From the sequence record OP745616: a DNA stretch of 64,000 nucleotides, one strand, 5' to 3'. The position numbers were made by a program, and so were the translations under genes. Source of the DNA: Escherichia phage E20. Positions 2,178-42,315 of this stretch are shown in pieces (position 1 is the stretch's first letter; the number at the start of each line of letters is the position of its first letter). The notes beneath the pieces were generated by a model that saw only the letters and a list, made by a program, of their open reading frames with translations, was not told the origin of the DNA and did not search any database.

Positions 2178-2211
2178 TTAGTAATTCCATTAACTTTAGG
2201 AGAGTAAGTAA

Positions 2212-3264: not shown

Positions 3265-3271
3265 TCACAAC

Positions 3272-7624: not shown

Positions 7625-7630
7625 ACCTAA

Positions 7631-7657
7631 GACCTCCTCCGGGAGGTCTTTTTTTGG
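7631..7657 (+). terminator. rho-independent terminator
   Basis: stem gacctcc/ggaggtc then T7 run. Confidence 0.55.
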
Positions 7658-7684
7658 TTTCAATTAACTCTTTTAGGGGGGCAT

Positions 7685-7897
7685 ATGCCTGCTAAATACC
7701 GTATCAAAGACACTCCACTAATGTGTGAGGGTGAGAAGGGTGACATTGTATATGCCTGTATCCAGGATGATTTCAATGCTGCTCTGATGTTAACCCAAAT
7801 GACAAATACACTGCATGTATCAGTAACACTGGACCCTACCGGTGACTATCCATGCTTCCCTATCCCTGCCCATAACCTGGAGCAAATCCATGATTAA
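7685..7897 (+). CDS. hypothetical protein
   Basis: 70-aa ORF; RBS-like ggggg before ATG. Confidence 0.4.
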   Translation: MPAKYRIKDTPLMCEGEKGDIVYACIQDDFNAALMLTQMTNTLHVSVTLDPTGDYPCFPIPAHNLEQIHD

Positions 7898-8204
7898 TCC
7901 TGAAGTTATTCATAGTAAAACTGGTAAGGCTATTCCACTTAGTGATATTGCAGTTACCGGTGATATTGCTGCTTGTCCGGCTAACATCGCTTCCCTGTGT
8001 ATGTGCATTGCTGCACTAGCAGAGGAACGTAAATTATGGCTGGAACCAAGCAAAGAAATGGTACTAGCTGGCATGTCTGAACTGAATGCACTTCTGAAAG
8101 AAATGTATGACGAGGATGGTCAATTAGTTGAGCCAACTGATGACCAGATTTCTGATGCTGTAGTATTTATCCTTCAAGCAATGGCAGGTAAACGTAATGG
8201 CTAA
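7890..8204 (+). CDS. hypothetical protein
   Basis: ORF frame 7842..8204; internal ATG at 7890 preceded by ggagc and overlapping upstream stop (MINPEVIHSKTG). Confidence 0.4.
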   Translation: MINPEVIHSKTGKAIPLSDIAVTGDIAACPANIASLCMCIAALAEERKLWLEPSKEMVLAGMSELNALLKEMYDEDGQLVEPTDDQISDAVVFILQAMAGKRNG

Positions 8205-8388
8205 TGTAAATATCGCCTCAGAGAAAACATATAGCATTCAAATTAATGGCTTAACAGAATATCAGGTCTTATTCCTAATGAATGCTTTTCAAAACAGTCC
8301 AGTGGGTCACCATCCTAATGATGAACCACGGGAAGAAGCTGAGCTTCGTAAAGCTATTTTTGATAAGTGTAAACAAGTACTACTTTAA
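8197..8388 (+). CDS. hypothetical protein
   Basis: 63-aa ORF overlapping upstream stop. Confidence 0.35.
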   Translation: MANVNIASEKTYSIQINGLTEYQVLFLMNAFQNSPVGHHPNDEPREEAELRKAIFDKCKQVLL

Positions 8389-8415
8389 GCAACATTTAAA
8401 CTGGAGAGTAAATAA

Positions 8416-10983
8416 ATGTTAGTTGCAGATACTAATCAATCAGCCACTTCAGCGACACTGGGTGGCAAAGAAGCAATCGCCTTTGGCATCTCTGATGACC
8501 CGGCATTCTTTCACGTATTAAGTACTTCCTTGTATAACAACCCTACTCTGGCAGTAGTCCGTGAGACTATCTGTAACAGTTGGGATGCCCACATTGAAAC
8601 AGGTAAGACTGATACACCTATCCGTATTACCATTGATACTGACAACTTTATTACCTTCCGTGACTTTGGTAACGGAATCCCGGATGAACTCATTGGTTCC
8701 ATTTACGGTGTCTATGGTGCATCCACTAAGAAGTCCAACAGCAGTGTTACTGGTGGCTTTGGTCTGGGATGTAAATCCCCATTCGCTTATACAGATAGCT
8801 TCCAGGTTACTTCATGGAACCAAGGAAAGATGTCTGTGTATAACGTAGCTAAGGCTGCAATTGAGAATGATGGTAAACCAGGTATTGTTCCTATTGTTAC
8901 TGGTATTCCTACTGAGGAATCTGGTCTGGAAGTTAAATTCCAGTTAGGTAAGCACGACGTAAATACCTTTGTGCATTACATCACATCAATTGTGTTTAAC
9001 GGTGAAATTAAGGCCGAGCTTAGTCTTCCCAAATTAATTCGTGAAGAAACAGGTAATAGTATTCAACAAGGTGACTACACGCTACTGAATACATTAGGTA
9101 TGTCATTTGAACCTGGTTCGTATGATATGTCTGATAGCTGGTATCAAAGCTATATGGGTAGCAGTAACATCTTTGTTCGTTACGGTAACGTAATGTACCC
9201 AATAGTATCCAGCCCAGCTAGTGAAGAAGCTGTAGGTCTTATTCTCAACTTCATGAATATTATTGGTGCTGACACTTTAGTAGTTCAGGCTGCACCAGAT
9301 ACCTTAGCTATTGCCCCTAGTCGTGAAACCCTGTCTAACCAGAAGCTAACTGACGATGGTATTACTGCTCTATGTGTAGATTTAGTAGACCGTATGGAGA
9401 AAGAGATTAAGGCTAAGATTCCTGAAGCTATTAAGCAGATTGAAGAATACGCCTCTGAATCTTCTACTCAATATTGGGAATACCCATCTTTCCTGGGTGC
9501 TGTTACAGATAGAACTGTTCAACGCTATATGTCCTCCAGTTTGTGGGCTAAGCAACGTAAGCATCATATTAAGCACTGGCGTAATCTATCCAATAAGGCA
9601 TTACTAGCTCGCCCTGAGTATGCAGGTCTTAAAAAACTGTATAGTAAAGCTATGAGTGCTCTTAAGGATACTCGTGCAGATGGTACAAGATACCCATTCC
9701 AGGAATTAGTATACCGGCATCTGCACTTACCTCAGCTTGCTGCTTTAAAAGCCACTGGTATTAAGTGGTCTGGTTACATAATGAACCAAGGTTATAGTGT
9801 TGACCTGGTGAAAGGTAAACTTACTGACTACTTTAAGATAGGTTATAACTCCCATCTAGGTATTGGTATTTTCACTACTAAGAACGTTGTAGTTACTCGA
9901 CGTTTATCCGACTGTGCAGTCTCTTTCGCATACTTCCCTGAATACAGTAAAGGTGACCTGGAGCGTACAGCTTTTGTTCACGTTGTTAGTCCTAAGAAGG
10001 GAGAAGCAGAAAAAGCTGTAGCTAAGTTCACTGCTATGGGTTATCGGGTTATTAACCTTACTCAATATAATGAGTGGGACAAGCCAACTAACCTCCGCAG
10101 AGAACAAGCTAAGATAGCTGCTGAGAAACGTGCTAAGACGATAGCTGCCAATAAAACCAAAGCAGGAGGTAAAACTAATGCACTGGTTTCATTGAATGCA
10201 GTACTTGGTACTAACCCTGTACGAGATAAAAGTGGCGATTGGGTATCTAAGCCGTACATTGACGGGGGATTTGCTGACCCAGCACGCCATGAGAAATACG
10301 GTTTTGTTGAGGTAGAACAGCCTAAGTACTACGTACTAGCCAATCAGGTTGGTTCTGGTAGTCCTGTAACTGCTCGAATTGGAACCATGTGGAAATGGTA
10401 CGAGTTATCTGATGAGATGAAAGCAGAGACTGTTGTCTGTCGCAATCAAATCGAGGCTAACAAGGCCAAACGACGTGGTGCTATACACATTGATGATGTT
10501 CGTTTTAACGAACTGATGTCAGTTATTACCAGTAAAGTTTTCAAGAAATATGTTACTGAACACCGTATTGGTATTCTGGAATATGTAGGACTTGATGACA
10601 GAGAATATTGGGAAATCCTTGATATTCTGGGGCTAACCTTCAAACCATTACAGAATCTGATTTTTAAACCAGAGTATGAATGGGCATATGACTTTCTAAG
10701 GAATCGACCACATGGCTACAAAGAAAAACTTGTTGAAATGGGTTGTATTAAGTCAGTGGATGACTTAGAGCCATATACAATGATGGTTAATCCACGTAAT
10801 CATAAGTACTTTGAAATGCTTAATCAATACAAAGGATTATTCCGTTATAGCTGGGGTGCTGGTGACATACTACAGAGTCTGGACTTAGGTAGTTTAGTTA
10901 AACATCTCAAGAGAAATCCAGAGGATATTCCTGGGTTTAAGTCCCTCTACCGTAATCGTCTAAATAAACTGAAAGGTAAATAA
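8416..10983 (+). CDS. rIIA: rIIA-like protein (GHKL-type ATPase N-terminal domain)
   Basis: 855 aa; N-terminal motifs VRETICNSWDAH, RDFGNGIP, GGFGLGCKSPFAYTDSFQVTS match the conserved T4 rIIA ATPase-like block. Confidence 0.75.
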   Translation: MLVADTNQSATSATLGGKEAIAFGISDDPAFFHVLSTSLYNNPTLAVVRETICNSWDAHIETGKTDTPIRITIDTDNFITFRDFGNGIPDELIGSIYGVYGASTKKSNSSVTGGFGLGCKSPFAYTDSFQVTSWNQGKMSVYNVAKAAIENDGKPGIVPIVTGIPTEESGLEVKFQLGKHDVNTFVHYITSIVFNGEIKAELSLPKLIREETGNSIQQGDYTLLNTLGMSFEPGSYDMSDSWYQSYMGSSNIFVRYGNVMYPIVSSPASEEAVGLILNFMNIIGADTLVVQAAPDTLAIAPSRETLSNQKLTDDGITALCVDLVDRMEKEIKAKIPEAIKQIEEYASESSTQYWEYPSFLGAVTDRTVQRYMSSSLWAKQRKHHIKHWRNLSNKALLARPEYAGLKKLYSKAMSALKDTRADGTRYPFQELVYRHLHLPQLAALKATGIKWSGYIMNQGYSVDLVKGKLTDYFKIGYNSHLGIGIFTTKNVVVTRRLSDCAVSFAYFPEYSKGDLERTAFVHVVSPKKGEAEKAVAKFTAMGYRVINLTQYNEWDKPTNLRREQAKIAAEKRAKTIAANKTKAGGKTNALVSLNAVLGTNPVRDKSGDWVSKPYIDGGFADPARHEKYGFVEVEQPKYYVLANQVGSGSPVTARIGTMWKWYELSDEMKAETVVCRNQIEANKAKRRGAIHIDDVRFNELMSVITSKVFKKYVTEHRIGILEYVGLDDREYWEILDILGLTFKPLQNLIFKPEYEWAYDFLRNRPHGYKEKLVEMGCIKSVDDLEPYTMMVNPRNHKYFEMLNQYKGLFRYSWGAGDILQSLDLGSLVKHLKRNPEDIPGFKSLYRNRLNKLKGK

Positions 10984-26592: not shown

Positions 26593-26665
26593 TACCCGGT
26601 AGGCTTAGTGGCAAAGCCCCACTAGTAAACTAACTAGGACGCAGGTTCGAATCCTGCCCGGGTAA
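26593..26665 (+). tRNA. tRNA (isotype undetermined; non-canonical anticodon arm)
   Basis: manual cloverleaf: perfect 7-bp acceptor tacccgg/ccgggta, D stem ggct/agcc with loop tagtggcaa, T arm gcagg-ttcgaat-cctgc; anticodon arm ctag/ctag core does not give a standard 7-nt loop. Confidence 0.5.
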
Positions 26666-26674
26666 TCATACTAT

Positions 26675-26748
26675 GTCCACTTAGCTTAGACTGGGAAAGC
26701 AACCGACTAATAATCGGAAGGTCACTGGTTCAAATCCAGTAGTGGACA
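26675..26748 (+). tRNA. tRNA (anticodon read as AAU in 7-nt loop cuaauaa; isotype uncertain)
   Basis: manual cloverleaf: 7-bp acceptor gtccact/agtggac, D stem gctt/aagc, anticodon stem ccga/tcgg, T arm actgg-ttcaaat-ccagt; 74 nt; 9 nt after preceding tRNA. Confidence 0.55.
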
Positions 26749-26985
26749 CCCATTCAGCAGTAACATAGTCCTGATTGCATAGCACTCTAAAGACAACACT
26801 GGTAAGACAGTCCAGTGGCTGCTAATGTATTGTTATTCCCCTCGACGGGAATTTCGCTAGTGAAGGTAACACTTAAAAATCCAAACCTACGTCTTACTAC
26901 TATCGGGCTATCAACCCACGGTCGCTTAACCCACTAGTGGTAGTAGTTTGACGGCCTGCCTCGTTGACTGCGTTAAAGTCACTAA

Positions 26986-28930: not shown

Positions 28931-28936
28931 ATTAGA

Positions 28937-28967
28937 AGCCCCTCCTTTGAGGGGCTTTTTTATTTTA
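28937..28967. terminator. bidirectional terminator between convergent plus and minus blocks
   Basis: stem agcccct/aggggct flanked by A-run upstream and T-run downstream (ttttttatttt); sits between 28930 (+ stop) and 28965 (- stop). Confidence 0.55.
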
Positions 28968-31900
28968 GTTTACTAAGTTCATCCAAGGGTTCAGGTTGTG
29001 AGCACGAAGACCCTGACCAAAGCCCCAAGAGTAATCCAGACTACCCTTAGCAGCAATACTAAAGATGTTGTCCTGAATAGGTAAGCCAACGTTACCAAAC
29101 ATGGTAGGGGTTGGAGCCAGCATCGCCATTGCTGCATGAACCGGGTTGTTACGAATCATGGACACTGCAACCTTAGCTGAACGAATCTTAAAGTTGTAGA
29201 ACCACATCAAACCAACACTTTCCATATACCCACGGAAGCGACCTGGTAAACGGTCATAGTTAACGAACTCTTCCGTTACACGTCCCAGTGCTTCTTCACG
29301 AGTCTTACCTTTACGCTGAGTCAGTTCATCATAGATGATTGCTTTAGCGATGAAGTCGGAGTACTCAACAGTCTTCTGGATACCCTGGAACAAAGCAGTA
29401 TCCTTAGTGATAAGTGCATAACGACCAGCAGTACGTACAGACTTAGGTAATTTATCAGCCAGCTTTTCCATGTATTCGTGAAGTTTGCCCTCAGTAATCA
29501 AGATGTCATCACGACCAATACCAGCATCTGCAATTGAAGAGAACTCACCTGCTTCTAACAGAGGCCAGATACTCATACGCTTATGGCTATCAGTAATAGA
29601 CTGAATTTCAGCCTTAAGTTTACGAATCTGGTTCGGGTTAGTAGCTGCACGTAATTCTGCTTCTGCATCTACCTGACGCAGACGAGATTTAAGATACTGG
29701 TTAATCTCAGCAGTTTTCTGTGGAATGCTCTTAGCAATATTCTTAACAGGTACACCACGAGCAACCATCTGGTAAAGGTTAGCCAAGAAGTTAACAGCAG
29801 GTACGACTACTGACTTAACTACAATCAGCGTCTTAGCTTCTTTAACTAAGTTTTGAACCAGGTTCTCACCACCCATTGTGTACTTATAAGCACGGTTGCC
29901 AAATACACCCAGCATAGCTTTCTTGAAGGTATCCAATGTTTCCGGGGACCAACGAGAATTACCTGACCAGGCATCTCCAACGGAAGCTGCACGATAACCT
30001 AGTGCATCATTCAGCATGTCACGACGTACCCACAGTTCACCTTCACCGAACAAACTCTCTGCTTTCTGGCGTGTTTCACTATTCATCAGCTTAAGAGCAT
30101 CAGCAGTTACTGGGTCCAGTTTAGAACCAAGAAGGTTAACGTACTGGGACTTATTAGCAGAAGACATCTTAATGTCATTCTCATACATGCTATGCAGGTT
30201 CTCAATCAGCATATCGTTGAAACGCTGAGCCTTAGCTTCTTCCACCTGACGACCACGCCATACACCTATTGCACGGGCAAGATGGTTTTCACCTTCAATG
30301 TGTTTCAGCATGTTAGGGTCAATGGATTGTTCATAGGCAACCACATTACCTTTATCGTCATATACAGGCATCAGTGGTTCATTACCACGTTCCCCACGAG
30401 CCAATGCTTTAGTGATACGGTCTACGGAAGGCTTGTCAGTAATACGACCAGCTACCATGGAACCCATCGTAAAACCTGTGCCGATGTCTACACCACCAGC
30501 AGTATTGCGAACGTTTTGTAGGATACCCTGTGAGAAAGGAGCTTGTGCCTGTACCGGTGCAAAATAGTAGCTACGTGCTGGACCACGATTAGCGGAGCTA
30601 CCTTGATAAGTACCCAGACGTACATAGGACTTCTCAATCAAATCACCAAACTGACTATCTTCAGCAACAATCAGATTAACACCTTGTTTAGTCTCACTCG
30701 GGATATGTCCTTTGTACTGGTTCAAGGTTGCACGCATATCAGATTTGGCTTTAGCCATTTCATCTTTACGCTGACCAACCAGGTAAGAAGTAGCAAAATC
30801 CATTCCATCAACTTCTGATTGAGCCAGTGAAGATAACATCTCACGGTCGGACTTGTTCATTGCTTCCAGTGCATACAGGGTAATCAGCTTATCCAGTTGA
30901 GCTACATCTACAGTAGAACGAGCAGCCTGACGTTCGCCCAGCATACGGGAGATTGCAGTAGCATTACGCAGCAGGTTATTACCGACTGTACCGTTAATCA
31001 TGAACTGAGCCAGTTGCTTAGATTTACGACTAATCAGAGGCCAGTTACGGCCTGCTTGTTTCTGTAAATCTGCTTCCAGCTTATTCACTTCACGGTCAAC
31101 AATCTTCTGGTCAGACAGCAAGTCACGGATTTCAGCCAGAGACATGGTGTCACGCAGAACAGCCAAATCAGTTTTACCCATACCAGTGTGCATTGCTTTC
31201 CACTCATCGTTAGTCAGCTTACGGCTGAACTTAGATGCGATAGTGGTAGGCAGATGTTCACGGAACTGCTGACGATCTGCCTGCACCTGTGCACGCACTG
31301 CTTTAATCAAATCGTATACAGAAGCATTACTCTTAGTACGACCAGTTAAGTCATTAACCAGGTCATGGAAAGGTTGCCATACCTTACCCTGGTTCATTGC
31401 AGCCATAACACCTTCAGCTACGATTGCACCATTCTTCTCTGTAGCAATAGCAGCTATCAGTTGTGCAGCATGAGCAGCACCTTTGACCAATGGATTCTTG
31501 GTATTAGCTGCAACTTCACGAGCACTTTCTAAAGCACGGGTAGACAGTGCATCAATAGAATCCACCAGATACTGGTTAGAACGGTCAATAGCATTACCAC
31601 TAGGAGTAGCAACAGAATCATATAATGACTGTGCATTGAGGCTAGTCTGCATGATTGTTTGAGCCAGTGCATCCATACCTTCCTGTACGTTGGTAGCTTT
31701 AGTGTCACCTGCTACACGGGCATTCAAGCTAGACATTGCAGCAGTACCGATGTTAGTCAGCATTGCATCAATGGTATTCCCAGATTTCTTATCTGCTTTC
31801 ATAACAGGAATGTTAGCCAGTACGTTACGTACTTCTTCGCTTACCATTGCCAGACCAACAAAGGTAGGCAGTAAGGAAGAACGACCCTGTGCGTCAAACT

Positions 31901-34900
31901 CAATATTGTTAGCACCCATGATGGTATCGAACTTCTGCTGAGCATAGTAACGGTCAGCTGGGTTAGTGCTATCCGGGTCAGCCATGAATGCTTCAACTGT
32001 CAGGTTCTTAGTAACGTGTGCATAGTATTCCTGTGCCCGAGAAAGAGCAGCCGGACTAATAGCAGCTTCAATAGCCAAAGCAGCAACGATATTAGTGAAC
32101 AGGCGTTGTTCCTGCATATTCATAGTAAAGCCATGAGCCTGAACATCACGGGTTACTTTAGTTGCATTCACTACTGCATCAGAGAACTTACCTTTACGAA
32201 TTACTTGCTGTACTGGTTCAGAACCAATGTAGTTAGTAATCAGTTTGTCAAAAGTCTGTCCCAACTCTTCCAGACGGATATTGTCACCATACGCCTTGTT
32301 ATGGAACAAGGTAGTGTCTTTGGATACAGCAGCCGTAGGAGCCTGTCCACGCATAACTACAGAAGAGTTAAACAGCAAGCCGGAGAACATATCATCTGCA
32401 TTAGCAGGTGCTTTCTTACGACCAAATACCAGACGCTTGATTGCCTCATACACAGACTGAACCATAGTTTTCAATGCAGTGGTTTTCTTCTGCTTACCAA
32501 TCAGTTCACGGTTGGTTAAACCCCAAGCCATATACTCATTCAGTGCAGCAGCTTTAGCCATTGCAGGTTCAATAAAGCCATTAGACAAGTGACCGTTAAT
32601 GGTATTGAGAGCATCAGCATATGCTTCACGTACTGCCGGGGATTCATTCTTAACATCCAGAGTACGGAACTGGTTCATCAGGTCTTCAATATTCTGAACT
32701 GCTTCATTAGGAGTACCCTCATAGTGAGCCAGTACAGATTCAAAAGTAGAAGCATGTACTAATTCATGAACCAGAGTCTCTAAGGAAGGGGTAACTAAGT
32801 AGATGGTCTTATCATCAAAGTTAGTCCAGCCATATGCATTACCAGCTTCGGCAGCTTCAATATCTTCTGGTGCTGGGCGAGTAATGTTCTTCTCAATAGC
32901 ATAAGCATCCAGTTGAGCAGGAGTACCGTAAACAACCTTGTAGTCTTTAGCAGCAAGGGATTTCTGTACTTCTTTCAATACTGCTTGCTGTTCAGGAGAC
33001 ATCTCTTTAGCCAGCCTAGTGATAGCAGTATTGGACAGCATACGTACACCAGACTTCAGTACACGACCAACCTGTTCCATTGCTGGTACTTCTTTAACAG
33101 GTACTTCTTTCACTGGTTCTGCTTTAGCAGCACGTACTGCATCGCGACGCTTGTTTAATTCAGCATCAAACAGTTCGTTCAGCTTAGCTACTTGCTGGTC
33201 TACAGTCAGACCTTCCAGAGAGATTTTACCGTTGTTCACATAAGGAGCACCCACAGCAGCCATCTGATCAACAGTGGTCTGTACCTGGTTCATTACTTTG
33301 TGGCGAATATCTACACCCAGAGCAATGTTACGCAGGTTACGTTCAATAAGGTTAACACCGGAATTCTTAATCATATCAATCTTATACTGCCTGTCTCCCT
33401 CAACACGACTGATATGAGAAAGCTGTTCAAAATCCAAAGCAGAACGGGCAATGTCATCAATTGTCTTATCCGACAACTTATTAAAGTCTACGTTCTTCAT
33501 GAACTTAGAGAAGGAGTCATAAACATTCTTGATAGGATTACCCTGCCAAGAAGTATATACAGCCTCATTAGCTTTACGGCTTGCATCAGTGATGTCATTG
33601 ATACCAATGTTCATACCATCAAAGATTTTCAGGGTATTCTTCGGTGCACCTTTCATAGTAGAAAGGGTCTGCATCATCATGCCATCACCAGTACCAATGG
33701 TCATAAATGGAATACCTGCAACACCTGCTTGTGAAGGAGCATAGACGCTCATTGGCACACGCATACGGTCATCTAAGTTGGTAGCCAGTACTTGGTTAGC
33801 AACATCAGTATTCTCACTACCAGCAATGTAGAAAGTTTGTGAGCCAGTCTCAATCATTGGAGCCAGTGGAGATAATGATTCCTGGATTTCATTAAGTTCT
33901 TTCTGCGTTAAGAAATCGCCCTTCTTCCAGGTTGGGTCTTTTTCTTTTTCTGCTAGTTTAGCCTGTACTGCTTGTTGGAACATATCCTGCAATACTAAAG
34001 ACTGAATTTGAGTAGCCTTCTGCAAGTTCTCAGTGGAGTGCATCAGACCTTCACCAACAGTGAACCGGATACTTTGTCTCATTGGTTCAACGAAGAAGTG
34101 CAACATATTCTCTTGTAAGTTCTTAAGGGCATCACCAGATACAGTAAACTCCTGGGGATCTAACTCACCAGTCAGAGCACCATCTACCTCCTTAATAAAT
34201 AACTTACCTTTACGCTTGGCTGGAATTTTACCAGTCAGTGCTTCCATAGAAGTAAGGAAAGTATCCAGCATAGCCTGAGCATCCGCTTCAGACGCAGCCT
34301 CCTTACCAAACATTGCCATAGCTGGGGAAATGCTAGGGTCAGCAGCACGTGCTTGCAGAACGTCACTGAGGCGTTCATAGATGGTATCAGTAATTGCACT
34401 AACCATCTTGCCAGCAATACCACGAGCACCAGAACCATAGATGGTAATGGTCAGTGGGTTTTTAGCTATACCACGTTTCAGGTCCAGAGTACCGTCTTCA
34501 TTCAGGTTAAAGTCTTTAATGAACAGGTCCATTAACTTCTGGAGATGATTCATCTGGCTCATAATCGGAACGTTGTTACGGTAAGCACTACGTAATTCAT
34601 TTAGATAGAATTGCAAACTATTGGTAGATGCTTCATATAAGTCAATGCTGTCATCATATGAATGATGTTCATTCATAGTCTTACCGGCTTTACCGAAGAA
34701 CAAGCCACCCTTAGCAGTATTCTTAATCCAATTTTGGGTGAACTTACCACCAGTCATTAATACCATTGCGTTGATTGGGCCGTTGGTTACACCATCAGCT
34801 TCGACATACAGTGGGGTATTAAAGTTGGCACGGTCATCGCTGTTCAGGTAACGGGCATATTCCATCAGAGCCATGAGAGCTACAAAGGATTTGTTATCAC

Positions 34901-37900
34901 CCAGGGAGGACTTCAGAATATCTACTGCATCTGTGGGTAAGTAACCAGACTTATTAAATTCAACCATCATATCAACAGCAGGCTTCAGATTGCCTTCCAG
35001 AGCTTTGGTCAGATTTTCAGACATAGCTTCACGGGACATTTTATGTACCTTAATGCCTAATGCCTGAGCCAGTCCCAGCTGGAAGTCAGAGAACGCTTGG
35101 CTATTTTCATTACTCAGGTCAATAGTAGAGAAGGTTGGCAGAATTGCTTCACGAACCAGCTTACTGGATTGTGGGTTGTTCTTACCAAGCATCTGCATAC
35201 GACCTACTCGGGTCATGTTATAGCCATAGTGAATGGGGGTATCCAAACCATTCTCTTGTTCTTTTAGCTGATTAATTAAACCGAACAAGGAATCATATGC
35301 CATAGATACTGATAAGTTCTTACCTTCCAGTGATTTGGCATTGTTCTTATTCAGCAAATCGGGATTAAGAGTACCAGCACCCATTAGTTCCAGAATGCTG
35401 TCTCGACCCAATGCTTCATAGAAGTTAACCATCGGCATGTGTACACGGAACTCAGTAGCCTGTTCAGCTTTCAGTGCAGCTTTCTGTTCGGGGGTATTCT
35501 TAACAGCAGGATTACGTAACTGAGTTTGGGCCACGGAAGGAATGTCGTCACCAAAGTACATTTTCTCTTCCGGATTTACCAACACAGCTTCTTCAATTGC
35601 TGTAGGGAAATTATTAATAGGGTCTTTATCAGCCAACTTATTAATAGTGTACAGACCAATAGTCTTATTAGAGTCCGGGTCAATCTCAGACACATCCAGC
35701 ATAGTCTCTGTAACTGCACCCATCTCAATGAGGGAAGACAGAATCTCTGTAGCCATTGCCACTGGAATGCCTTTTGTATAACCCAGTGGTGCATTAGGGT
35801 TACGATTCAAACCCCAATAAGATTCAATCTTCTGAGCCAGTGAGCTAGTAGCTTCGACCAGGGTCTGGGCATTCTCAAATTCAGCCAGAATACTTTCTGG
35901 TAACAAGGATGCTTCTACTCCAGTAATGGCAGCTACGTCTTTTATGTCTTTAATGGCAGCATTCTGTGCAGCAGTCAGTCGCCATTGCAGACCAGCAAGC
36001 ACGGCAGTCTCTAACAACTGGTCATTGAACTTAAAGGTATCACCATCTTTTTCAACGATATTCAGCAGTTTGCCACCTACCCAACGGTTAGCTTCAGTAC
36101 CTTCTGCAAAACGTTTACCAACGTTCTTATTAGCAAGGAACTTAGCCAGTCGTTCAGACAGAGTAGTCTTCAGTGTTTCCCCAAAGTCCATCAAATCTTG
36201 GTAACGTTCTAACACATCACCCGTGAGAGCGTTATTTTCTTTTTGAGTGAATGCTTCAAAGCGAGCAGCAGAAGACAGTGCTTGCTTAATATCAGCTAAA
36301 GGAGATTCAGAACCAATGGTACGGGACTTGGGTTCTTCTGGCAGGGTAAATGCTTTCAGGAACTGGTTCGGTGTCTTTTCATTGTTATAGACAGGGAACA
36401 CTGTTTCCATCTCAGAAAGAGGTTTGCCACCTACTGTATAATCTGCTTTTAGCTGAGCCAGCGATACTTCATCTTTCTCCACGTTGTTAGTGTTACGGCC
36501 AGAGGTATCTACACCAACCAGAATCTGTGCATTATTGGCTTCAACGAAAGATTGAACAGTATTGAATTGTTCAGCGGTCAGCTTTTGATTATCAAACAGT
36601 TGTAGGGACACAAACGGTTGTTCACTGCCTTTATAGAAAGTAGAGCGAATAGAACCAGTATCCAAAGACATATCACGATAGCCATCATGCCCAAATACGT
36701 CAGACAGGCTGATATGGTCGCCATTAGAACCAACCACAGTACCATCAGCAAACAACCACGGACTCTCTCTACGGTCACCACTCTTATTAAGAGTTTCCTG
36801 TGAAATGGTATTTTCTTTCACATAAGCATCTCTTTCAGATTCAGTAGGTTGCTCAATGGTATCCTCATTAGTGAGGGTAGCATCTACTGTTTCAGGCTTA
36901 GTAGTAGAAACTTCTTCTGTTTTTGGGCTAGTCTCCTTAGTAGGAGCAGTCTTATTTTCTACCACTGGTTTAGCTTTAGGCTGTACAGTAGTAGTGTCCT
37001 CTTGCACTGGTGCAGGAGTTTCATCAACCTGATTCACTGGTTCATTAGTCTGTTGAGACTGAGTGGCATCAAGACCACCTTGACGGAACTCTTTAACTAC
37101 CTGGGCAGCAGGCTTGTTCAGACGTGAATCCAACGAGGTAACTTTCACATGAGAAACATTAAGCTCCGGGTAAGCCGTAGCAAGTGCATTAGCAATATCA
37201 GCTACGGTCTTGGCTTCCAGTCCTACTTGCTGGGCAAACTTAACAGACTTGGTATCATACGGATTGACACCGAGGCCAGTACGACTACGTACCCATTCAC
37301 GGGAAGGCGAGAGAGCCTGATAATGAACAGACTTATTCTTATCCGCATTCCCCGAAATCAGATGCTCATTCAACGCTCCGACCTTATTCTGCATGTGCTG
37401 GGCGAACTTCATAAAGTCGCTCAGATAAGCGGAGGCCAAATCGAAGTTACCAGAGTTATACGCAGAACGAATGCGTTTCGCATGTTGCAACGCAGAGTAC
37501 TGTCCTTCATTAGAACGAGACTCATCGGTTTTAATCTGTTTACTAACAATGTCTTGAGGACGTAAGCCTAGTTCTTCTGCTTTAGCGTCGAACTCACGTG
37601 CACCCTGTAACAAGGCAGCAGCAGATTGCAGGGCAGCACGTTGACGATTCCCTAATGTAATCTTACCTTCACTCGCATGTTTCAGAATCATGTTAACTGA
37701 ATCTGCATCCAGTACTTCTGGAGACACATCAGCAGCCATAGCAATATTGTTTGCTTGGGCTTGATTAGCTTCTTCAGTAGCTTTCAGCTTACCTGCTTCA
37801 GCCTGTTCCTGAATCATGGAATGGATGGCACGGAATGCACGAAGTACTTTAGGGGTATTCTGTACGTTAGCCATCAGGCCAGAGAACTGGTCTACGATTG

Positions 37901-39797
37901 CAGCAGCAGGGGAACCTTGTTCCAGATTAGCCAGAGCACCCGGGTCACGGTTAATGAAGCTATCCATAGACATGATGTTGTCGTACATCTGGATTGCAGC
38001 TTCCATTTGAACGTTGGGGTCTTCGGCAGTATTAACCAAGTCAGCCATCTTCTGAATAGCTTCTACACGGTTAGTGGAACCAGAAACAGCTTCACGGATT
38101 ACTGGGTTAACTTGTTCCAGTTCTACTGGGTCAAACTTCATTGCCTGAGTTAAGTCAGCAGCATACTGGGTAGCAGCAGCTTTCTCTTCCGGAGAAATAT
38201 CCATTGCATCTACTGCTTCCTGTACAGTTGCTTGTGCTTGTTCTGCCTGAGCAGCAGCTTCCTGTGCAGCAGCATTAACCGTAGCATCAGCTACAGGGGA
38301 TGCTTGTTCATTACGCTTGGCAACTTCTTCACCACGTTGAACCAGAATGTTAGTAAGAGGAGATGCAGCTTTTGCTAGTGTTTTACCAACCAGAGAAGCA
38401 CCAGCCAGGGTAGTACGAAGAGTAGGGCCAGCAGCAGCACCGGCAGCTTTAACAGTTGCACCAGGGACTTGAGCAACTCCAGCACTACCGAAGCCATAAA
38501 GTGCACCAAGACCTGCTTGCTCACCAACCCCTTTGAGGGTGTCACGGGATGCATCAACGTTTTCTTTGATTGCAGTATTCTGTGCGAACTGACCAAAGCC
38601 GGATTGAATACCTTCCTCTACAGTTTCACGCAGCATATTAGAACCAGCACCTGCCAGTGAACCTACCTTAAGTGGGTTAAGTTCAAAGCGAGATACCAGT
38701 GGGCCGGTAGCAGCAGCAACTGGAGCAGTTAAGCCAGCAGCAATGATACCTGTTTCAGATGCAGTCTGACGACGTGCTTCATCAGGAGATAAACCATCAG
38801 CAATATGCTGTTGGTAAACAGGAGACTTACTTGCCAGTTCTTGGTGGGACATCTTCATGATTTCAGAAGCAGTCTGTTGGTATGCACCACCAGCTTCCAT
38901 ACCACCGATTGCAATAGCAGGTGCAGCAACACGACCAGCAGACAGTGCAACCTGTGCAGGACGTGAACCTAACCCAGCAGCTAAGGTAATACCCTTAACA
39001 GCTTTATCACCACCTACCATTACTTTACCGAGTGCAGATACACCACGAATAAGTGGACCACCGGTAAAGAGGGAACCAACACCTTCACTCAGTCCGTCAG
39101 AGGCAGCCATACCATTATCAAGTGTATTAGCAACAGAATCGAAAGCATCACGACCAATACGAGACAAGGAGGCAACCAAATCGTTCTCCCCATTTTTGAT
39201 GTCTTGTTCATAAAGTTTCTGATTCTTTTGAGCAGAAATCTGGTTCTGATTCTGAACAACCTTACGGGTAGCATTCAGTGCATCAGACTGTAGATTGTGT
39301 ACGCCTTCATTCAACCAATCCATCCCGGAAGCAATGGTTGCCCCGGCATTATCATTGACCAAACCTGTGCCAAGAGCAGCAATGCCCCCAAGGGTATTAG
39401 CAACACCAAGACCAACACCAGAAAGAGTATCGCCAAATGCTTCTGCGTTAGTACGTTGTTTAGATAAGTCCTGACGTACAACATCCGCAGCATTAGCTCG
39501 GCTATTAAGAATTTGTAGACCTTGCTCATTACCGTATTTATTAATGATTTCTAATGGGGAGGCTTGAGTGAAATCTGCCTGAAGTGAACCTGGTTCGAAT
39601 GCACCGATTCCAAGATTACCTACACGTCCGGTCTGGAGATTGTAAGCATTCTCTGGGGTTAATTGGAAAGGGATTTGCCCTTGTGCAGCTTGCTTCTGAG
39701 AGGTTGCAGTAGAGACATCGACTCGCTTAGCATTAGTGATGCTGTCTGCGAAACCTGCCAGACGGTCAAATGTTGACATAGCATGTTTCCTGTTCAA
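28965..39797 (-). CDS. giant virion-associated RNA polymerase (N4 gp50-like vRNAP) candidate
   Basis: single 3610-aa ORF on minus strand at head of late block, in the size range I recall for N4 vRNAP (~3500 aa); context of N4-like replication and structural genes; catalytic motifs not verified by eye. Confidence 0.75.
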   Translation of the reverse strand: MNRKHAMSTFDRLAGFADSITNAKRVDVSTATSQKQAAQGQIPFQLTPENAYNLQTGRVGNLGIGAFEPGSLQADFTQASPLEIINKYGNEQGLQILNSRANAADVVRQDLSKQRTNAEAFGDTLSGVGLGVANTLGGIAALGTGLVNDNAGATIASGMDWLNEGVHNLQSDALNATRKVVQNQNQISAQKNQKLYEQDIKNGENDLVASLSRIGRDAFDSVANTLDNGMAASDGLSEGVGSLFTGGPLIRGVSALGKVMVGGDKAVKGITLAAGLGSRPAQVALSAGRVAAPAIAIGGMEAGGAYQQTASEIMKMSHQELASKSPVYQQHIADGLSPDEARRQTASETGIIAAGLTAPVAAATGPLVSRFELNPLKVGSLAGAGSNMLRETVEEGIQSGFGQFAQNTAIKENVDASRDTLKGVGEQAGLGALYGFGSAGVAQVPGATVKAAGAAAGPTLRTTLAGASLVGKTLAKAASPLTNILVQRGEEVAKRNEQASPVADATVNAAAQEAAAQAEQAQATVQEAVDAMDISPEEKAAATQYAADLTQAMKFDPVELEQVNPVIREAVSGSTNRVEAIQKMADLVNTAEDPNVQMEAAIQMYDNIMSMDSFINRDPGALANLEQGSPAAAIVDQFSGLMANVQNTPKVLRAFRAIHSMIQEQAEAGKLKATEEANQAQANNIAMAADVSPEVLDADSVNMILKHASEGKITLGNRQRAALQSAAALLQGAREFDAKAEELGLRPQDIVSKQIKTDESRSNEGQYSALQHAKRIRSAYNSGNFDLASAYLSDFMKFAQHMQNKVGALNEHLISGNADKNKSVHYQALSPSREWVRSRTGLGVNPYDTKSVKFAQQVGLEAKTVADIANALATAYPELNVSHVKVTSLDSRLNKPAAQVVKEFRQGGLDATQSQQTNEPVNQVDETPAPVQEDTTTVQPKAKPVVENKTAPTKETSPKTEEVSTTKPETVDATLTNEDTIEQPTESERDAYVKENTISQETLNKSGDRRESPWLFADGTVVGSNGDHISLSDVFGHDGYRDMSLDTGSIRSTFYKGSEQPFVSLQLFDNQKLTAEQFNTVQSFVEANNAQILVGVDTSGRNTNNVEKDEVSLAQLKADYTVGGKPLSEMETVFPVYNNEKTPNQFLKAFTLPEEPKSRTIGSESPLADIKQALSSAARFEAFTQKENNALTGDVLERYQDLMDFGETLKTTLSERLAKFLANKNVGKRFAEGTEANRWVGGKLLNIVEKDGDTFKFNDQLLETAVLAGLQWRLTAAQNAAIKDIKDVAAITGVEASLLPESILAEFENAQTLVEATSSLAQKIESYWGLNRNPNAPLGYTKGIPVAMATEILSSLIEMGAVTETMLDVSEIDPDSNKTIGLYTINKLADKDPINNFPTAIEEAVLVNPEEKMYFGDDIPSVAQTQLRNPAVKNTPEQKAALKAEQATEFRVHMPMVNFYEALGRDSILELMGAGTLNPDLLNKNNAKSLEGKNLSVSMAYDSLFGLINQLKEQENGLDTPIHYGYNMTRVGRMQMLGKNNPQSSKLVREAILPTFSTIDLSNENSQAFSDFQLGLAQALGIKVHKMSREAMSENLTKALEGNLKPAVDMMVEFNKSGYLPTDAVDILKSSLGDNKSFVALMALMEYARYLNSDDRANFNTPLYVEADGVTNGPINAMVLMTGGKFTQNWIKNTAKGGLFFGKAGKTMNEHHSYDDSIDLYEASTNSLQFYLNELRSAYRNNVPIMSQMNHLQKLMDLFIKDFNLNEDGTLDLKRGIAKNPLTITIYGSGARGIAGKMVSAITDTIYERLSDVLQARAADPSISPAMAMFGKEAASEADAQAMLDTFLTSMEALTGKIPAKRKGKLFIKEVDGALTGELDPQEFTVSGDALKNLQENMLHFFVEPMRQSIRFTVGEGLMHSTENLQKATQIQSLVLQDMFQQAVQAKLAEKEKDPTWKKGDFLTQKELNEIQESLSPLAPMIETGSQTFYIAGSENTDVANQVLATNLDDRMRVPMSVYAPSQAGVAGIPFMTIGTGDGMMMQTLSTMKGAPKNTLKIFDGMNIGINDITDASRKANEAVYTSWQGNPIKNVYDSFSKFMKNVDFNKLSDKTIDDIARSALDFEQLSHISRVEGDRQYKIDMIKNSGVNLIERNLRNIALGVDIRHKVMNQVQTTVDQMAAVGAPYVNNGKISLEGLTVDQQVAKLNELFDAELNKRRDAVRAAKAEPVKEVPVKEVPAMEQVGRVLKSGVRMLSNTAITRLAKEMSPEQQAVLKEVQKSLAAKDYKVVYGTPAQLDAYAIEKNITRPAPEDIEAAEAGNAYGWTNFDDKTIYLVTPSLETLVHELVHASTFESVLAHYEGTPNEAVQNIEDLMNQFRTLDVKNESPAVREAYADALNTINGHLSNGFIEPAMAKAAALNEYMAWGLTNRELIGKQKKTTALKTMVQSVYEAIKRLVFGRKKAPANADDMFSGLLFNSSVVMRGQAPTAAVSKDTTLFHNKAYGDNIRLEELGQTFDKLITNYIGSEPVQQVIRKGKFSDAVVNATKVTRDVQAHGFTMNMQEQRLFTNIVAALAIEAAISPAALSRAQEYYAHVTKNLTVEAFMADPDSTNPADRYYAQQKFDTIMGANNIEFDAQGRSSLLPTFVGLAMVSEEVRNVLANIPVMKADKKSGNTIDAMLTNIGTAAMSSLNARVAGDTKATNVQEGMDALAQTIMQTSLNAQSLYDSVATPSGNAIDRSNQYLVDSIDALSTRALESAREVAANTKNPLVKGAAHAAQLIAAIATEKNGAIVAEGVMAAMNQGKVWQPFHDLVNDLTGRTKSNASVYDLIKAVRAQVQADRQQFREHLPTTIASKFSRKLTNDEWKAMHTGMGKTDLAVLRDTMSLAEIRDLLSDQKIVDREVNKLEADLQKQAGRNWPLISRKSKQLAQFMINGTVGNNLLRNATAISRMLGERQAARSTVDVAQLDKLITLYALEAMNKSDREMLSSLAQSEVDGMDFATSYLVGQRKDEMAKAKSDMRATLNQYKGHIPSETKQGVNLIVAEDSQFGDLIEKSYVRLGTYQGSSANRGPARSYYFAPVQAQAPFSQGILQNVRNTAGGVDIGTGFTMGSMVAGRITDKPSVDRITKALARGERGNEPLMPVYDDKGNVVAYEQSIDPNMLKHIEGENHLARAIGVWRGRQVEEAKAQRFNDMLIENLHSMYENDIKMSSANKSQYVNLLGSKLDPVTADALKLMNSETRQKAESLFGEGELWVRRDMLNDALGYRAASVGDAWSGNSRWSPETLDTFKKAMLGVFGNRAYKYTMGGENLVQNLVKEAKTLIVVKSVVVPAVNFLANLYQMVARGVPVKNIAKSIPQKTAEINQYLKSRLRQVDAEAELRAATNPNQIRKLKAEIQSITDSHKRMSIWPLLEAGEFSSIADAGIGRDDILITEGKLHEYMEKLADKLPKSVRTAGRYALITKDTALFQGIQKTVEYSDFIAKAIIYDELTQRKGKTREEALGRVTEEFVNYDRLPGRFRGYMESVGLMWFYNFKIRSAKVAVSMIRNNPVHAAMAMLAPTPTMFGNVGLPIQDNIFSIAAKGSLDYSWGFGQGLRAHNLNPWMNLVN

Positions 39798-39842
39798 ACT
39801 TATATCGTATATAGGTAACTTACTCTACAGTAAGCCAGTGTA

Positions 39843-39868
39843 AGAAAAAAGCCCCGTAGGGCTTTTAT
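39843..39868 (-). terminator. rho-independent terminator (minus strand) upstream of vRNAP gene
   Basis: minus-strand reading aaagccctacggggctttttt: stem agccc/gggct then T6. Confidence 0.45.
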
Positions 39869-39873: not shown

Positions 39874-41838
39874 TTACCGATTTTGTCTTGGTTGCATATA
39901 CTCGGGCAGTCCTTGTGCCTGACGTAAGTATCGTGCAGCACGCTCTTCATCTTCCTTGGCTCGTGCCCTGTCCACACTAGCCTGTGACTGGAAACCTCTT
40001 GGAGCCAGGTTAGCTGGGTCAGCTTGAACTTGTGCCTGTGCAGCTTGGAGCATTGCAGCAGCTTTAGTAACAGCTTCCTGTCTTGCAGGTAACAATGCAG
40101 TAAGACCTGTTTGTCCGGTGTTAATCTTATTCTGGGTATTTGCCAGTGCAGCTACAGCAGCATCATATGCAGTCTGTGCTGCCTGAATATTCTGCATAGC
40201 TTGAGCACGACCCAGGTTACGAACACTACCTTCCAGTGGCTCTCCCCGTTTCACACCCTCAATTAACTGTTCTACCTGACGGTCATTAAGACGCATACCA
40301 TTACCAGCTTCATTGGTAATGAATGGGTTAACTGCATCAATAGCACGGCTAATATAACCCTCCGGTACACCAGTCTGTGCACGTTGCATAACAGCAGCAG
40401 CCATAGCTGGTGACATATTCCCACGTTGAGAAATATCATTCAGTCGGTTCAGTACCCAGTTACGGTCAGCACCTTTAAAATCACCCTCCAACAGACGGTT
40501 AGCAATCTCACCTACTGGGGTATTATCAGTGACAGTACCAAGGAAGTCGGTGTTAAGACTACCGGTGTTATCCTGCATAGAACGAGTACCAATCATACCA
40601 GTAGCCAAAGTAGATACTGCCTGATTACCTTGATTATTCTGAACCATAGCGAGTGGGTCAGCCCCCACTTCTGCTTGGGCAATAACAGGTTTAATCTGTT
40701 CCCAAGTCATATCCTTATAAGCACCCGGAGTAGAGTTAGGTAGAGCAGCCCAGGTATCTTTAAGATTACCATTCTTGCGAGACTCGAAGATAGCCTTACC
40801 AATCTTATCCTGGTTCTCAGGAGAAAGCGGCTGGCTTTGCCAATCTGAACCAAGAACTTTAGGAGCGAAGTCTTGCAGAGTAGCTTGGTTAATCTGGAAT
40901 GCACCAACAGGTGAAGCACCCTGGTTCGTCTTCATACCTTCTTGATGCTTAACTACATCACCAATACTCATTTGAGTAATAGGAGTAGAAGTACCAGCAA
41001 ACTGGTAAGTAACATCATAAGGGGAACCCTGACGTGTACCAGCAGTACCCGGAGCAGATGCAGCACCCACACCATTACCGTATACACCCGGGTAAGCACT
41101 AGCCAGTAATCCCTGCAAACGTGCCTGTGCAACCGGGGACAGGTTCTTACTATATGCTTCTGCCAACAGACGGGCATCATTAGGGTTCTCAGCACCACGG
41201 GTAATCTGTGACATTACACCCATAGCAGCCTGACTATCAGCATCATTACGCTGAGCAACACCTAAATCAAAACGATTCTGAGCTTGATTAATAGCCTGAC
41301 CACCCTGACCTTGAAGACTACTCAGCATGTCCAATTGCTGGTTAGCAGGGAGTGCAGACAATGCATCACGGGTCTGACTTAATGCAGCATTAATACGGTT
41401 CTGGTCACCGGACTGATAAGCCTCAGACAGTAAACGAATAGCAGGGGAAGCATTATCTAATGCAGAGTTAGTATCCTGCAAACGTCCAAAGATATAAGCA
41501 TTGTAGTCATTGGTTCCCTGCTGACCTTGTTGAGTCAGTAATGTACCTGCTCTCTCGTCCAGATTCTGGAGAGTACGCTGGTTTATCAGTGAAGGGTCAA
41601 CCCCCTGAAACAATGCACCAGATGCTAAAGCATTACGGTACTCATTCGGGTCTTGATACTGCATAGCATTCATCATGACGGCATTGCCAGCCTCCTGCTT
41701 GGCAGCGTTCTGGAAATTACCCAGTGCATCACTTAAGCCGGAGGTGGCGTTACCAATCATGTTGCCAAATGTGCGAATGCTGTCACCAACTCCAGAGAAG
41801 TTAGGTGCATCAACATTTCTCCACGTTATCTGAGCCAT
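39874..41838 (-). CDS. virion structural protein (N4 gp51-like position)
   Basis: 654-aa ORF, Gln/Ala/Asn-rich, directly upstream of vRNAP gene in late block. Confidence 0.45.
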   Translation of the reverse strand: MAQITWRNVDAPNFSGVGDSIRTFGNMIGNATSGLSDALGNFQNAAKQEAGNAVMMNAMQYQDPNEYRNALASGALFQGVDPSLINQRTLQNLDERAGTLLTQQGQQGTNDYNAYIFGRLQDTNSALDNASPAIRLLSEAYQSGDQNRINAALSQTRDALSALPANQQLDMLSSLQGQGGQAINQAQNRFDLGVAQRNDADSQAAMGVMSQITRGAENPNDARLLAEAYSKNLSPVAQARLQGLLASAYPGVYGNGVGAASAPGTAGTRQGSPYDVTYQFAGTSTPITQMSIGDVVKHQEGMKTNQGASPVGAFQINQATLQDFAPKVLGSDWQSQPLSPENQDKIGKAIFESRKNGNLKDTWAALPNSTPGAYKDMTWEQIKPVIAQAEVGADPLAMVQNNQGNQAVSTLATGMIGTRSMQDNTGSLNTDFLGTVTDNTPVGEIANRLLEGDFKGADRNWVLNRLNDISQRGNMSPAMAAAVMQRAQTGVPEGYISRAIDAVNPFITNEAGNGMRLNDRQVEQLIEGVKRGEPLEGSVRNLGRAQAMQNIQAAQTAYDAAVAALANTQNKINTGQTGLTALLPARQEAVTKAAAMLQAAQAQVQADPANLAPRGFQSQASVDRARAKEDEERAARYLRQAQGLPEYMQPRQNR

Positions 41839-41850: not shown

Positions 41851-42315
41851 TTAACGGGTTAGTTTATTAGCTGCAATGTAAGCATCAGCTGAAGACTGGT
41901 CACGGTTCTCTGCTGTAGCACGACTACGAGCACGGTCTTCCAGTGCAGTGTTATAAGACTTAATCTGGTTATTCAGGTTAGTGTTAGTAACACTCTTAGT
42001 AAAGTTCAACTGGTCTTTGGCTAACTTGTTAGCCTGGAAACCACTATAGATACCAGCTAAGGAACCAAGTGCACCAAGTCCTAGTTGGAAGGTAGGTACA
42101 TTCATACCAAACTGATTAGCTGAACCAGACAAGAAAGAGGTAGGGGTAGTTAACCCTGTACCTGCATTCATACCAATAGCTGCACCGGGGGCATAGTTCA
42201 TAGCTGGGGTATTAAAGTTCTGATTGTTATTAGACATCCAAGACATAGCCGCTGGCTGTGGGGTTTGGTTGCCTGTTAAGAATGACAAATCCATAGGGAT
42301 TCTCCTGTTAAACAA
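41851..42315 (-). CDS. virion protein, hypothetical
   Basis: 154-aa ORF in late block; Gly/Ala/Asn-rich. Confidence 0.4.
   Translation of the reverse strand: MFNRRIPMDLSFLTGNQTPQPAAMSWMSNNNQNFNTPAMNYAPGAAIGMNAGTGLTTPTSFLSGSANQFGMNVPTFQLGLGALGSLAGIYSGFQANKLAKDQLNFTKSVTNTNLNNQIKSYNTALEDRARSRATAENRDQSSADAYIAANKLTR

Follow-up and report, generated by a model that had tools for sequence, protein, structure and literature searches.

A virion RNA polymerase gene of the N4 type in Escherichia phage E20, with an additional predicted domain in its first linker

As compared with the T7-like single-subunit RNA polymerases, the N4-type virion RNA polymerases (vRNAPs) are about four times larger, are packaged in the virion, are autoinhibited by their C-terminal domain (CTD) and read single-stranded DNA hairpins, not duplex promoters. 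Kazmierczak et al. (2002), cited in PMC2784036 and PMC13492108, showed that the two groups are related. The N4 enzyme, gp50, is an experimentally expressed protein of 3500 aa with a solved structure (PMC13434306); full-length cryo-EM structures exist (PDB 9PNQ, 9PNR, 9PNT and 11GP), in addition to those of the mini-vRNAP (2PO4, 3C2P and 3Q0A). Its N-terminal domain (NTD) is lipid-binding and associated with injection, and its CTD has roles in autoinhibition and encapsidation (PMC13434306, PMC13492108). The N4 proteins gp51 and gp52 are co-ejected channel proteins (PMC13434306). Absence of cysteine has been reported for the N4 and roseophage vRNAPs (PMC2784036). N4-type vRNAPs, which bear a zincin-like HExxH domain, were counted by Iyer et al. 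(2017; PMC5512222) among the polyvalent proteins, very large chains that travel along with the DNA and join several effector or enzymatic domains of unrelated kinds, in most cases including a zincin-like MPTase. Another giant RNA polymerase ejected from the virion, gp66 of the crAss-like phage phi14:2, has an unrelated fold akin to the RNAi-type and two-barrel polymerases (PMC13434306), and no sequence similarity was seen between gp66 and the protein described here.

The DNA analysed was a stretch of 64,000 nucleotides of Escherichia phage E20 (sequence record OP745616; hereafter the window). A single uninterrupted open reading frame (ORF) is located on the minus strand at 28965-39797, with 3610 aa when counted in the ORF listing from the first TTG past the upstream stop. 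The probability of 3610 open codons in DNA of 44% GC is (61/64)^3610, about e^-173, so that a chance origin is impossible and the giant ORF of the initial annotation is real. That annotation gave no strand and counted from the TTG, and here it needs correction. An in-frame ATG at 39779 is located 6 nt past an AGGAAA sequence and opens a protein beginning MSTFDRLAGF, as compared with MSVFDRLAGF in N4 gp50; the N-terminus of G7C gp50 matches too. The mechanical TTG is almost certainly not the true start, which is probably this ATG, giving a coding sequence at 28965-39779 (minus strand) for 3604 aa plus the stop codon, a delimitation also based on nucleotide identity to relatives, on alignment to PDB chains and on the phrog_2206 match given below.

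At the nucleotide level the gene was 96.6% identical to the vB_Eco_F22 gene annotated as RNA polymerase and 92.8% identical to G7C gp50, and near-identical annotated vRNAP genes covering at least 80% of the query were found in 58 phage records. The occurrence of the same uninterrupted gene in these independent genome records, together with its collinearity with the N4 protein, makes an assembly or annotation artefact, such as a sequencing error that joined two genes, a negligible prospect, the unusual length being the sole point in its favour. A phmmer comparison with the full-length N4 vRNAP chains (E = 0) aligned aa 1-996 with N4 1-1005 and aa 1136-3603 with N4 1027-3499, and the match to phrog_2206 (virion RNA polymerase) spanned aa 25-3603. 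The T7-like core expected in the central region was detected: aa 1135-2218 aligned with the crystallised N4 mini-vRNAP chains (3q0a, 3c2p and 2po4; E = 0), and all four Pfam domains of N4 vRNAP (PF21624, PF21894, PF21867 and PF21769) were located at aa 1431-2174, all far above their gathering cut-offs (N4_RNAP_helical, E = 1.4e-100; vRNAP_dom_2, 4e-57; vRNAP_dom, 1e-51; vRNAP_plug, 7e-25).

The mini-vRNAP residues R119, W129, R424, D559, K670, Y678 and D951 were conserved at aa 1223, 1233, 1527, 1662, 1773, 1781 and 2054, respectively, and the 11-mers around these seven residues were unchanged save for one flanking substitution each near R119 and K670. R424, D559, K670, Y678 and D951 serve catalysis within motifs T/DxxGR, A, B and C, here in conserved local context; the T7-like single-subunit RNA polymerases have the same motifs, including two catalytic Asp residues, a Lys and a Tyr. 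Both the catalytic centre and the residues that contact the hairpin promoter are intact. No cysteine is present in the 3604 residues; the F22 and G7C vRNAPs have one each. The catalytic and −11G contact residues, the HExxH motif, the lack of cysteine, the adjacent gp51 and gp52 genes and the geometry of the promoter hairpin are all shared with N4.

From these results the gene is assigned, with a probability of about 95%, as the gp50 orthologue, the virion-encapsidated RNA polymerase of a G7C-like coliphage (Schitoviridae, Gamaleyavirus), in agreement with the initial annotation; in the sequence comparisons nothing counts against this assignment. The ORF could also be read as a degenerate vRNAP devoid of polymerase function, an ejection or internal virion protein retained only as part of a channel or plug, since podophage giant ejection proteins without polymerase activity, such as T7 gp16, do exist (PMC13434306). 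This reading is very improbable in view of the conservation of all catalytic and promoter-contact residues, the 70.7% identity of the polymerase (Pol) domain to that of N4 at a dN/dS of 0.09-0.16, the persistence of cognate hairpin promoters in the lineage and the presence, as in N4, of genes for a second, heterodimeric phage RNA polymerase in the early region served by these promoters (F22 annotation). As a gene call the virion RNA polymerase is of an already known and annotated kind, G7C-type vRNAPs having been annotated since 2011, and the accessory linker domain described below is a minor addition.

The chain has the same NTD-linker-Pol-linker-CTD order as N4 gp50 and is collinear with it throughout the NTD, Pol and CTD, which allowed the domain boundaries to be mapped by alignment to the N4 protein, as had been proposed. 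The NTD comprises aa 1-901 (37077-39779, minus strand, as are all the segments that follow; N4 aa 1-906) and is 60% identical to that of N4. Linker 1 comprises aa 902-1122; its first part, aa 902-985 (36825-37076), is of low complexity and rich in P, T, E and K, aligns to the N4 linker from residue 907 onward and has a dN/dS of 0.36 versus G7C, indicating fast evolution. The Pol (mini-vRNAP) domain, with its T7-like single-subunit core, extends over aa 1123-2220 (33120-36413) as defined by the PDB chains and Pfam, with 71% identity to N4. A short linker 2 separates it from the CTD, aa 2237-3604 (28968-33071; C1, 2237-2480; C2, 2481-3604), which is collinear with N4 2124-3500 at 69% identity and contains the HExxH motif at aa 2338-2342 (window 32754-32768). 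The result is a precise map of the departures of a Gamaleyavirus vRNAP from the N4 structural model.

The main departure is in linker 1, which has 221 aa as compared with about 100 in N4 owing to an inserted folded module. The protein exceeds N4 gp50 by 104 residues, and the indel map ascribed essentially all of them to one module of about 130 aa at aa 986-1115 (36435-36824), here called module B. Of the extra terminal or insert domains suggested by the initial annotation to account for the length, the insert was therefore borne out by the indel map and an AF2 prediction, and a terminal extension was not. The AF2 model (pLDDT 91.7, pTM 0.86) predicts a compact alpha/beta domain. Module B is under purifying selection, with a dN/dS of 0.085, a constraint like that of the polymerase core.

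The full module was present in 28 of the 67 matching phage records and in about 40% of the Gamaleyavirus vRNAPs. F22 (F22_0061, whose vRNAP is 5 aa longer than the E20 protein) and G7C (gp50) have the same neighbouring genes and the same module, with 100% and 94% amino acid identity within it, respectively. In contrast, about 60% of the close relatives, PhAPEC7 included, are without it, so it is dispensable for the basic function of the vRNAP. The vRNAPs of the PhAPEC7 type of Gamaleyavirus (3450 aa) are otherwise 98.6%, 91% and 98% identical in the NTD, Pol and CTD, respectively, and lack the module exactly between the sequences TLTNEDTI and EMETVFPVY. A second linker module of about 120 aa, unrelated to module B, is present in Shigella phage B2 and in the G7C vRNAP (3748 aa) and is absent here. 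In Gamaleyavirus vRNAPs, linker 1 is a place where optional folded modules are inserted. In the literature searched no description of vRNAP linker modules was found.

A word-indexed protein search gave zero matches to module B, and its homologues (21 sequences) surfaced only by exhaustive phmmer search. One of them is a distant vRNAP, with the module N-terminal of its Pol domain; another is an LPD7 protein adjoining mobC on a Vibrio plasmid; several are found in proteins with LPD22, LPD38, LPD39, ddrB-ParB, InPase, SLT or SNF2+MTase domains, those that bear LPDs being giant proteins. One linker-1 module belongs to a domain family common to the polyvalent proteins of phages and plasmids. Eight residues (S, P, L, G, D, H, R and Q) were invariant in homologues only 23-40% identical. 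The Ig-like repeat protein P0015, another candidate homologue, was rejected as spurious (8 short stretches). When 18 members were compared with Pfam and NCBIfam, no match at E ≤ 1 was found save scattered single ones (E ≥ 0.028), and the module was not found in any named LPD or Pfam family of these databases. A profile search against PDB sequences gave only noise (E ≥ 0.009), and the sole match of a search in BFVD was the copy of the module carried by Shigella phage pSb-1. The accessory domains of vRNAPs described in PMC5512222 (ART, lysozyme and PBECR) differ from module B.

The RNA polymerase core, the HExxH domain and module B are combined in one chain, as expected of a polyvalent protein, whose transfer together with the DNA would follow the N4 model. 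Our best guess is that module B is a cargo or effector domain brought to the site of DNA entry. A bolder proposal, less likely than not, is that it represents an unnamed domain family of polyvalent proteins and is injected as an effector, whose invariant residues (S/P/L, D-H, R and Q) would serve either catalysis or the binding of a target. Linker 1 would tether it where the phage DNA enters, and the approximately 40% of Gamaleyaviruses that have it would gain a function in host takeover or counter-defence which is missing from N4 and the PhAPEC7-type phages. It is also possible, if doubtful, that the module has no activity of its own and is a structural bead, one that makes the tether from the membrane-bound NTD to the cytoplasmic polymerase longer or stiffer or that aids packing in the capsid. 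Its location is in agreement with such a role, the corresponding N4 linker being a low-complexity tether of about 100 aa (PMC13434306), as are the strong variation in linker content (a second, unrelated module in G7C and B2, none in many relatives) and the lack of an enzyme family or fold match. Against this role, one would not expect a simple spacer to evolve under a constraint at the level of the polymerase core, or to preserve eight polar or structural residues without change at such low identity. The module is also found again, as a separate unit, in unrelated polyvalent proteins, both from phages and from a plasmid of the conjugative type. For the effector proposal, the natural pairs with and without the module (F22 or G7C versus PhAPEC7) make it an easy target, with the PhAPEC7-type vRNAPs as natural module-less controls.

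The orthologues of gp51 (39874-41838) and gp52 (41851-42315), both on the minus strand, were identified by phrog_6126, phrog_2646 and synteny with G7C. They are located immediately upstream of the vRNAP gene, and the gp51-gp54 order is that of G7C. Such a late-gene setting beside the ejection proteins is the one expected of an N4-type vRNAP. In the G7C record, virion confirmation is noted only for gp51 and gp54. A terminator-like hairpin followed by a T-run (39847-39866, minus strand; AAAAGCCCTACGGGGCTTTTTTCTT) is located between the gp51 stop (39874) and the vRNAP start, with a folding energy of −7.9 kcal/mol (z = −5.0), and a terminator is annotated at the same place in PhAPEC7. At the other end, a bidirectional intrinsic-terminator hairpin (28934-28959) separates the vRNAP gene from a convergent plus-strand gene ending at 28930; it has a GC-rich stem of 9-11 bp with T-runs on both strands (−10.5 kcal/mol, z = −4.1), and a matching terminator is annotated in G7C and PhAPEC7. 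A scan for sigma-70 promoters gave fewer sites than shuffled sequences did, with nothing convincing upstream of the vRNAP gene, to which no promoter is therefore assigned.

The cognate promoters expected of an N4-type vRNAP precede early genes and are hairpins with a stem of 5-7 bp and a 3-nt loop, the middle base of which is a G on the template strand. One candidate vRNAP early promoter was found within the window, most of the early region falling outside it: the plus-strand site 63892-63904, with the template-strand hairpin GTTGC-GGA-GCAAC. It is identical to the site upstream of F22 gene 1 and has the geometry of the N4 P2 hairpin, and its predicted GG start (63909-63910) precedes the first early gene, whose ATG is at about 63948. 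The left 8.5 kb of F22, the closest relative, contains five such sites as compared with 0.08 expected, and the F22-type promoter hairpins have covarying stems around an invariant loop. The stems of this lineage, recognised after inspection of the F22 left end, are GTTGC or GCTGC as compared with GAAGC in N4, the loop being conserved; the N4 P2 hairpin sequence itself (GAAGCGGAGCTTC) did not occur beyond chance in the window. As a candidate promoter, the hairpin would match the R119 and W129 contacts (aa 1223 and 1233).

By analogy with N4 (PMC13434306, PMC13492108), the capsid would hold a few vRNAP copies, loosely folded like beads on a string, which upon receptor binding would be expelled after gp52 and gp51 via a tail channel of about 35 Å. 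The NTD would insert at the inner membrane; on the cytoplasmic side, the Pol and CTD would regain their folds while tethered by the linker. Autoinhibition of the Pol by the CTD would last until the Pol engages a DNA hairpin extruded by supercoiling, recognised by its 5-bp stem and template-strand GGA loop, with −11G stacked on W129. The early genes would then be transcribed from the GG start, and this transcription may also help genome entry (PMC13434306, PMC13492108).

The antisense ORFs within the vRNAP gene had been dismissed as chance frames in the initial annotation, and this was upheld. Twelve antisense stop-to-stop frames of at least 100 aa were counted (longest 214 aa), as compared with 10.3 ± 2.1 when the synonymous codons of the sense gene were shuffled 200 times (mean longest 215), which supports their compatibility with chance. 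One phase relative to the sense codons is common to six of the seven listed antisense ORFs.

A single uninterrupted open reading frame was found on the minus strand at 28965–39797, with 3610 codons counted from the first TTG in the ORF listing of the window, which confirmed the giant ORF described in the initial annotation; in DNA of 44% GC a frame of this length cannot be due to chance. Inspection of the upstream sequence revealed an in-frame ATG at 39779 with AGGAAA 6 nt before it. The N-terminus read from this ATG (MSTFDRLAGF) corresponds to that of gp50 of phage N4 (MSVFDRLAGF), and the N-terminal starts of gp50 of the phages G7C, F22 and PhAPEC7 agree with it as well. The product is therefore a protein of 3604 amino acids, encoded at 28965–39779 including the stop codon. 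The antisense strand contains 12 stop-to-stop frames that reach 100 aa or more, with a maximum of 214 aa, and synonymous-codon shuffles of the sense gene gave 10.3 ± 2.1 such frames with a mean longest one of 215 aa. Both values match, and six of the seven listed antisense ORFs lie in a single shared phase, so that these ORFs are by-products of the sense frame and not genes, as had been proposed.

The protein was identified as a virion RNA polymerase (vRNAP), the gp50 orthologue of N4-type phages. Megablast against 50,697 phage records gave 88 matching records, 58 of them covering at least 80% of the gene, with vB_Eco_F22 at the top (96.6%, annotated as "RNA polymerase"), RudolfBernhard_Bas96 at 94.6% and G7C at 92.8% (gp50, "virion RNA polymerase"); the best-matching phages all belong to the Schitoviridae, genus Gamaleyavirus. 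Four Pfam domains specific for the N4 vRNAP were found at aa 1431–2174 (E-values 1e-100 to 1e-25), and PHROG 2206, "virion RNA polymerase", spans aa 25–3603. In phmmer searches of PDB sequences, aa 1–996 and 1136–3603 matched residues 1–1005 and 1027–3499 of the full-length 3500-aa N4 vRNAP chains (E = 0), and the central region (aa 1135–2218) matched the mini-vRNAP crystal chains, also with E = 0. These matches, together with the conserved catalytic residues, support the vRNAP assignment made from the sequence alone, and there is nothing unusual about the gene, which is already annotated and belongs to a structurally well-characterised family.

The catalytic and recognition residues were taken from the N4 list (PMC2784036, PMC13492108), with an offset of 997 from mini-vRNAP to gp50 numbering. 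The −11G recognition residues R119 and W129 are conserved at aa 1223 and 1233, R424 (T/DxxGR) at aa 1527, D559 of motif A at aa 1662, K670 and Y678 of motif B at aa 1773 and 1781, and D951 of motif C at aa 2054. The 11-residue contexts of all seven are unchanged, save for one flanking substitution each near R119 and K670. The HExxH motif described for CTD-C1 (PMC5512222, PMC13434306) is present at aa 2338. The domain mapping suggested in the initial annotation, with the boundaries published for N4 carried over by alignment, gave a collinear NTD (aa 1–901), linker 1 (aa 902–1122), Pol (aa 1123–2220), linker 2 (aa 2221–2236) and CTD (aa 2237–3604), with identities to N4 gp50 of 60% for the NTD, 70.7% for Pol and 69% for the CTD. 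The protein has no cysteines, as in N4; PhAPEC7 is also devoid of them, and F22 and G7C each carry a single one in the Pol domain (aa 1706 and 1850, respectively).

The five-way alignment placed the excess over N4 in linker 1, and the insert domain that had been guessed behind the extra length thus corresponds to about 139 aa common to the window protein, F22 and G7C and missing from N4 and PhAPEC7, where the gap edges are exact (between TLTNEDTI and EMETVFPVY). In N4 this linker is a low-complexity tether of about 100 aa, invisible in cryo-EM (PMC13434306). By tblastn the complete segment was found in 28 of the 67 matching phage records, the others matching its C-terminal flank only. G7C differs from the window protein in an additional linker-1 module of about 120 aa (gp50 aa ~975–1095, FTGKQQATYMQIGQYFDYNGKEY...) 5′ of the common one; beyond G7C it was seen in Shigella phage B2 alone (OM858838.1, 28193–28552), in 3 phage records in all, and gave no match in a Pfam search.

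The AF2 model of the common module from the single sequence was mediocre. When 1.84 billion representatives were searched exhaustively with phmmer, 21 matches were obtained, and with 17 of these aligned AF2 predicted an alpha/beta domain from aa 986 to about 1115 (pLDDT 91.7, pTM 0.86). Eight residues are invariant in this alignment: S, P and L of SPWL, G of ADG, D and H of GDH, R of TGAIR and Q of GQxLT. The dN/dS values between E20 and G7C were 0.085 for the module, 0.093 for Pol, 0.103 for the CTD and 0.36 for the adjacent low-complexity linker. The homologues reside in giant proteins with LPD22, LPD38, LPD39, ddrB-ParB, InPase, SLT or SNF2-helicase plus methyltransferase domains, which are the "polyvalent proteins" among which N4-type vRNAPs have been placed (Iyer et al. 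2017, PMC5512222). One homologue is a distant vRNAP of 3597 aa, in which the module is likewise N-terminal to the Pol domain. Another (30% identity) is a 1417-aa LPD7 protein encoded right after mobC at 5755–10008 of the Vibrio cholerae plasmid NZ_CP090388.1, which also bears type IV secretion genes, which shows that polyvalent proteins of the conjugation type carry the domain about as well. A role as a putative effector is plausible, and alternatively the module may be a structural bead in the linker. No coverage of the linker-1 module and its polyvalent-protein link was found in the literature searched, and we consider this optional module a modest lead, not a discovery.

The upstream same-strand neighbours are orthologues of gp51, gp52, gp53 and gp54; in N4 the first two are ejected along with the vRNAP and form the periplasmic tunnel and the outer-membrane channel (PMC13434306). 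The vRNAP gene is set apart from the convergent block of early/middle genes by a strong bidirectional terminator hairpin (28934–28959). On its other side, a terminator-like hairpin with a T-run (39847–39866, minus strand) stands between gp51 and the start of the gene; the annotations of G7C and PhAPEC7 include both hairpins. Since the second one is directly 5′ of the vRNAP gene, transcription of this gene may depend on a late promoter of its own. A sigma-70 consensus scan found no promoter just 5′ of the gene (39800–39846, minus strand); the late promoters of N4 are weak and SSB-activated. The replication genes are separated from the vRNAP gene by a gap with two neighbouring tRNA genes (26593–26752, plus strand), one tRNA-Ile (AAT) and the other of undetermined anticodon, and F22 has a tRNA-Ile annotated at the same place.

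By the offset to F22 (OP870143.1) the window begins about 7.3 kb into the genome, and most of the early region therefore lies outside it. The final 219 bases (63782–64000) are 97.7% identical to F22 198–419, so that the window extends into the left-end sequence and the source sequence crosses the genome ends, through either a terminal repeat or circular permutation of the assembly; this implies a unit about 70.9 kb long. Early gene 1 begins in this stretch (ATG at about 63948), which also holds the first of the early promoter hairpins. The candidate vRNAP promoter hairpin, GTTGC-TCC-GCAAC at 63892–63904 (template strand GTTGC-GGA-GCAAC), is the same as the site 5′ of F22 gene 1. The left 8.5 kb of F22 contains five hairpin sites of this type versus 0.08 expected, with stems GTTGC/GCAAC, GCTGT/ACAGC and GCTGC/GCAGC, in which pairing is kept despite the changes and the loop is invariant; the N4 P2 site (GAAGC-GGA-GCTTC, template strand) has the same geometry. 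A template CC lies 11 nt from the central loop G of the window hairpin, and the RNA start is therefore predicted as GG at 63909–63910, which would fit the initiating GTPs of the N4 initiation complex.

Taking the steps from N4 and only the sequence features from this phage, a few vRNAP copies would be packed in the virion as loosely folded beads and expelled through the tail after gp52 and gp51. The NTD would anchor at the inner membrane, Pol and the CTD would refold in the cytoplasm, held by the linker tether, and the early genes, among them that of the second phage RNAP, would then be transcribed.

In N4, GCTGC-TCC-GCAGC followed by TTTTGG (4548–4560 for the hairpin) stands immediately 5′ of gp15 (RNAP1); it shares its stem with two hairpins of F22 (1243 and 5107) and is presumably one of the three known N4 early promoters. 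A further hairpin with the promoter-type loop, CCTAC-TCC-GTAGG (61974–61986, plus strand), is located about 110 nt 5′ of a small plus-strand gene block starting at 62095; its downstream flank is unlike that of the other promoters, and it may be due to chance, about two of its kind being expected in the window by our estimate. At the extreme left end of the F22 record, 95–238 is an inverted copy of 273–419 (its own promoter and gene-1 start), 94.5% identical and with N bases, which looks like an assembly artefact of that record rather than biology.
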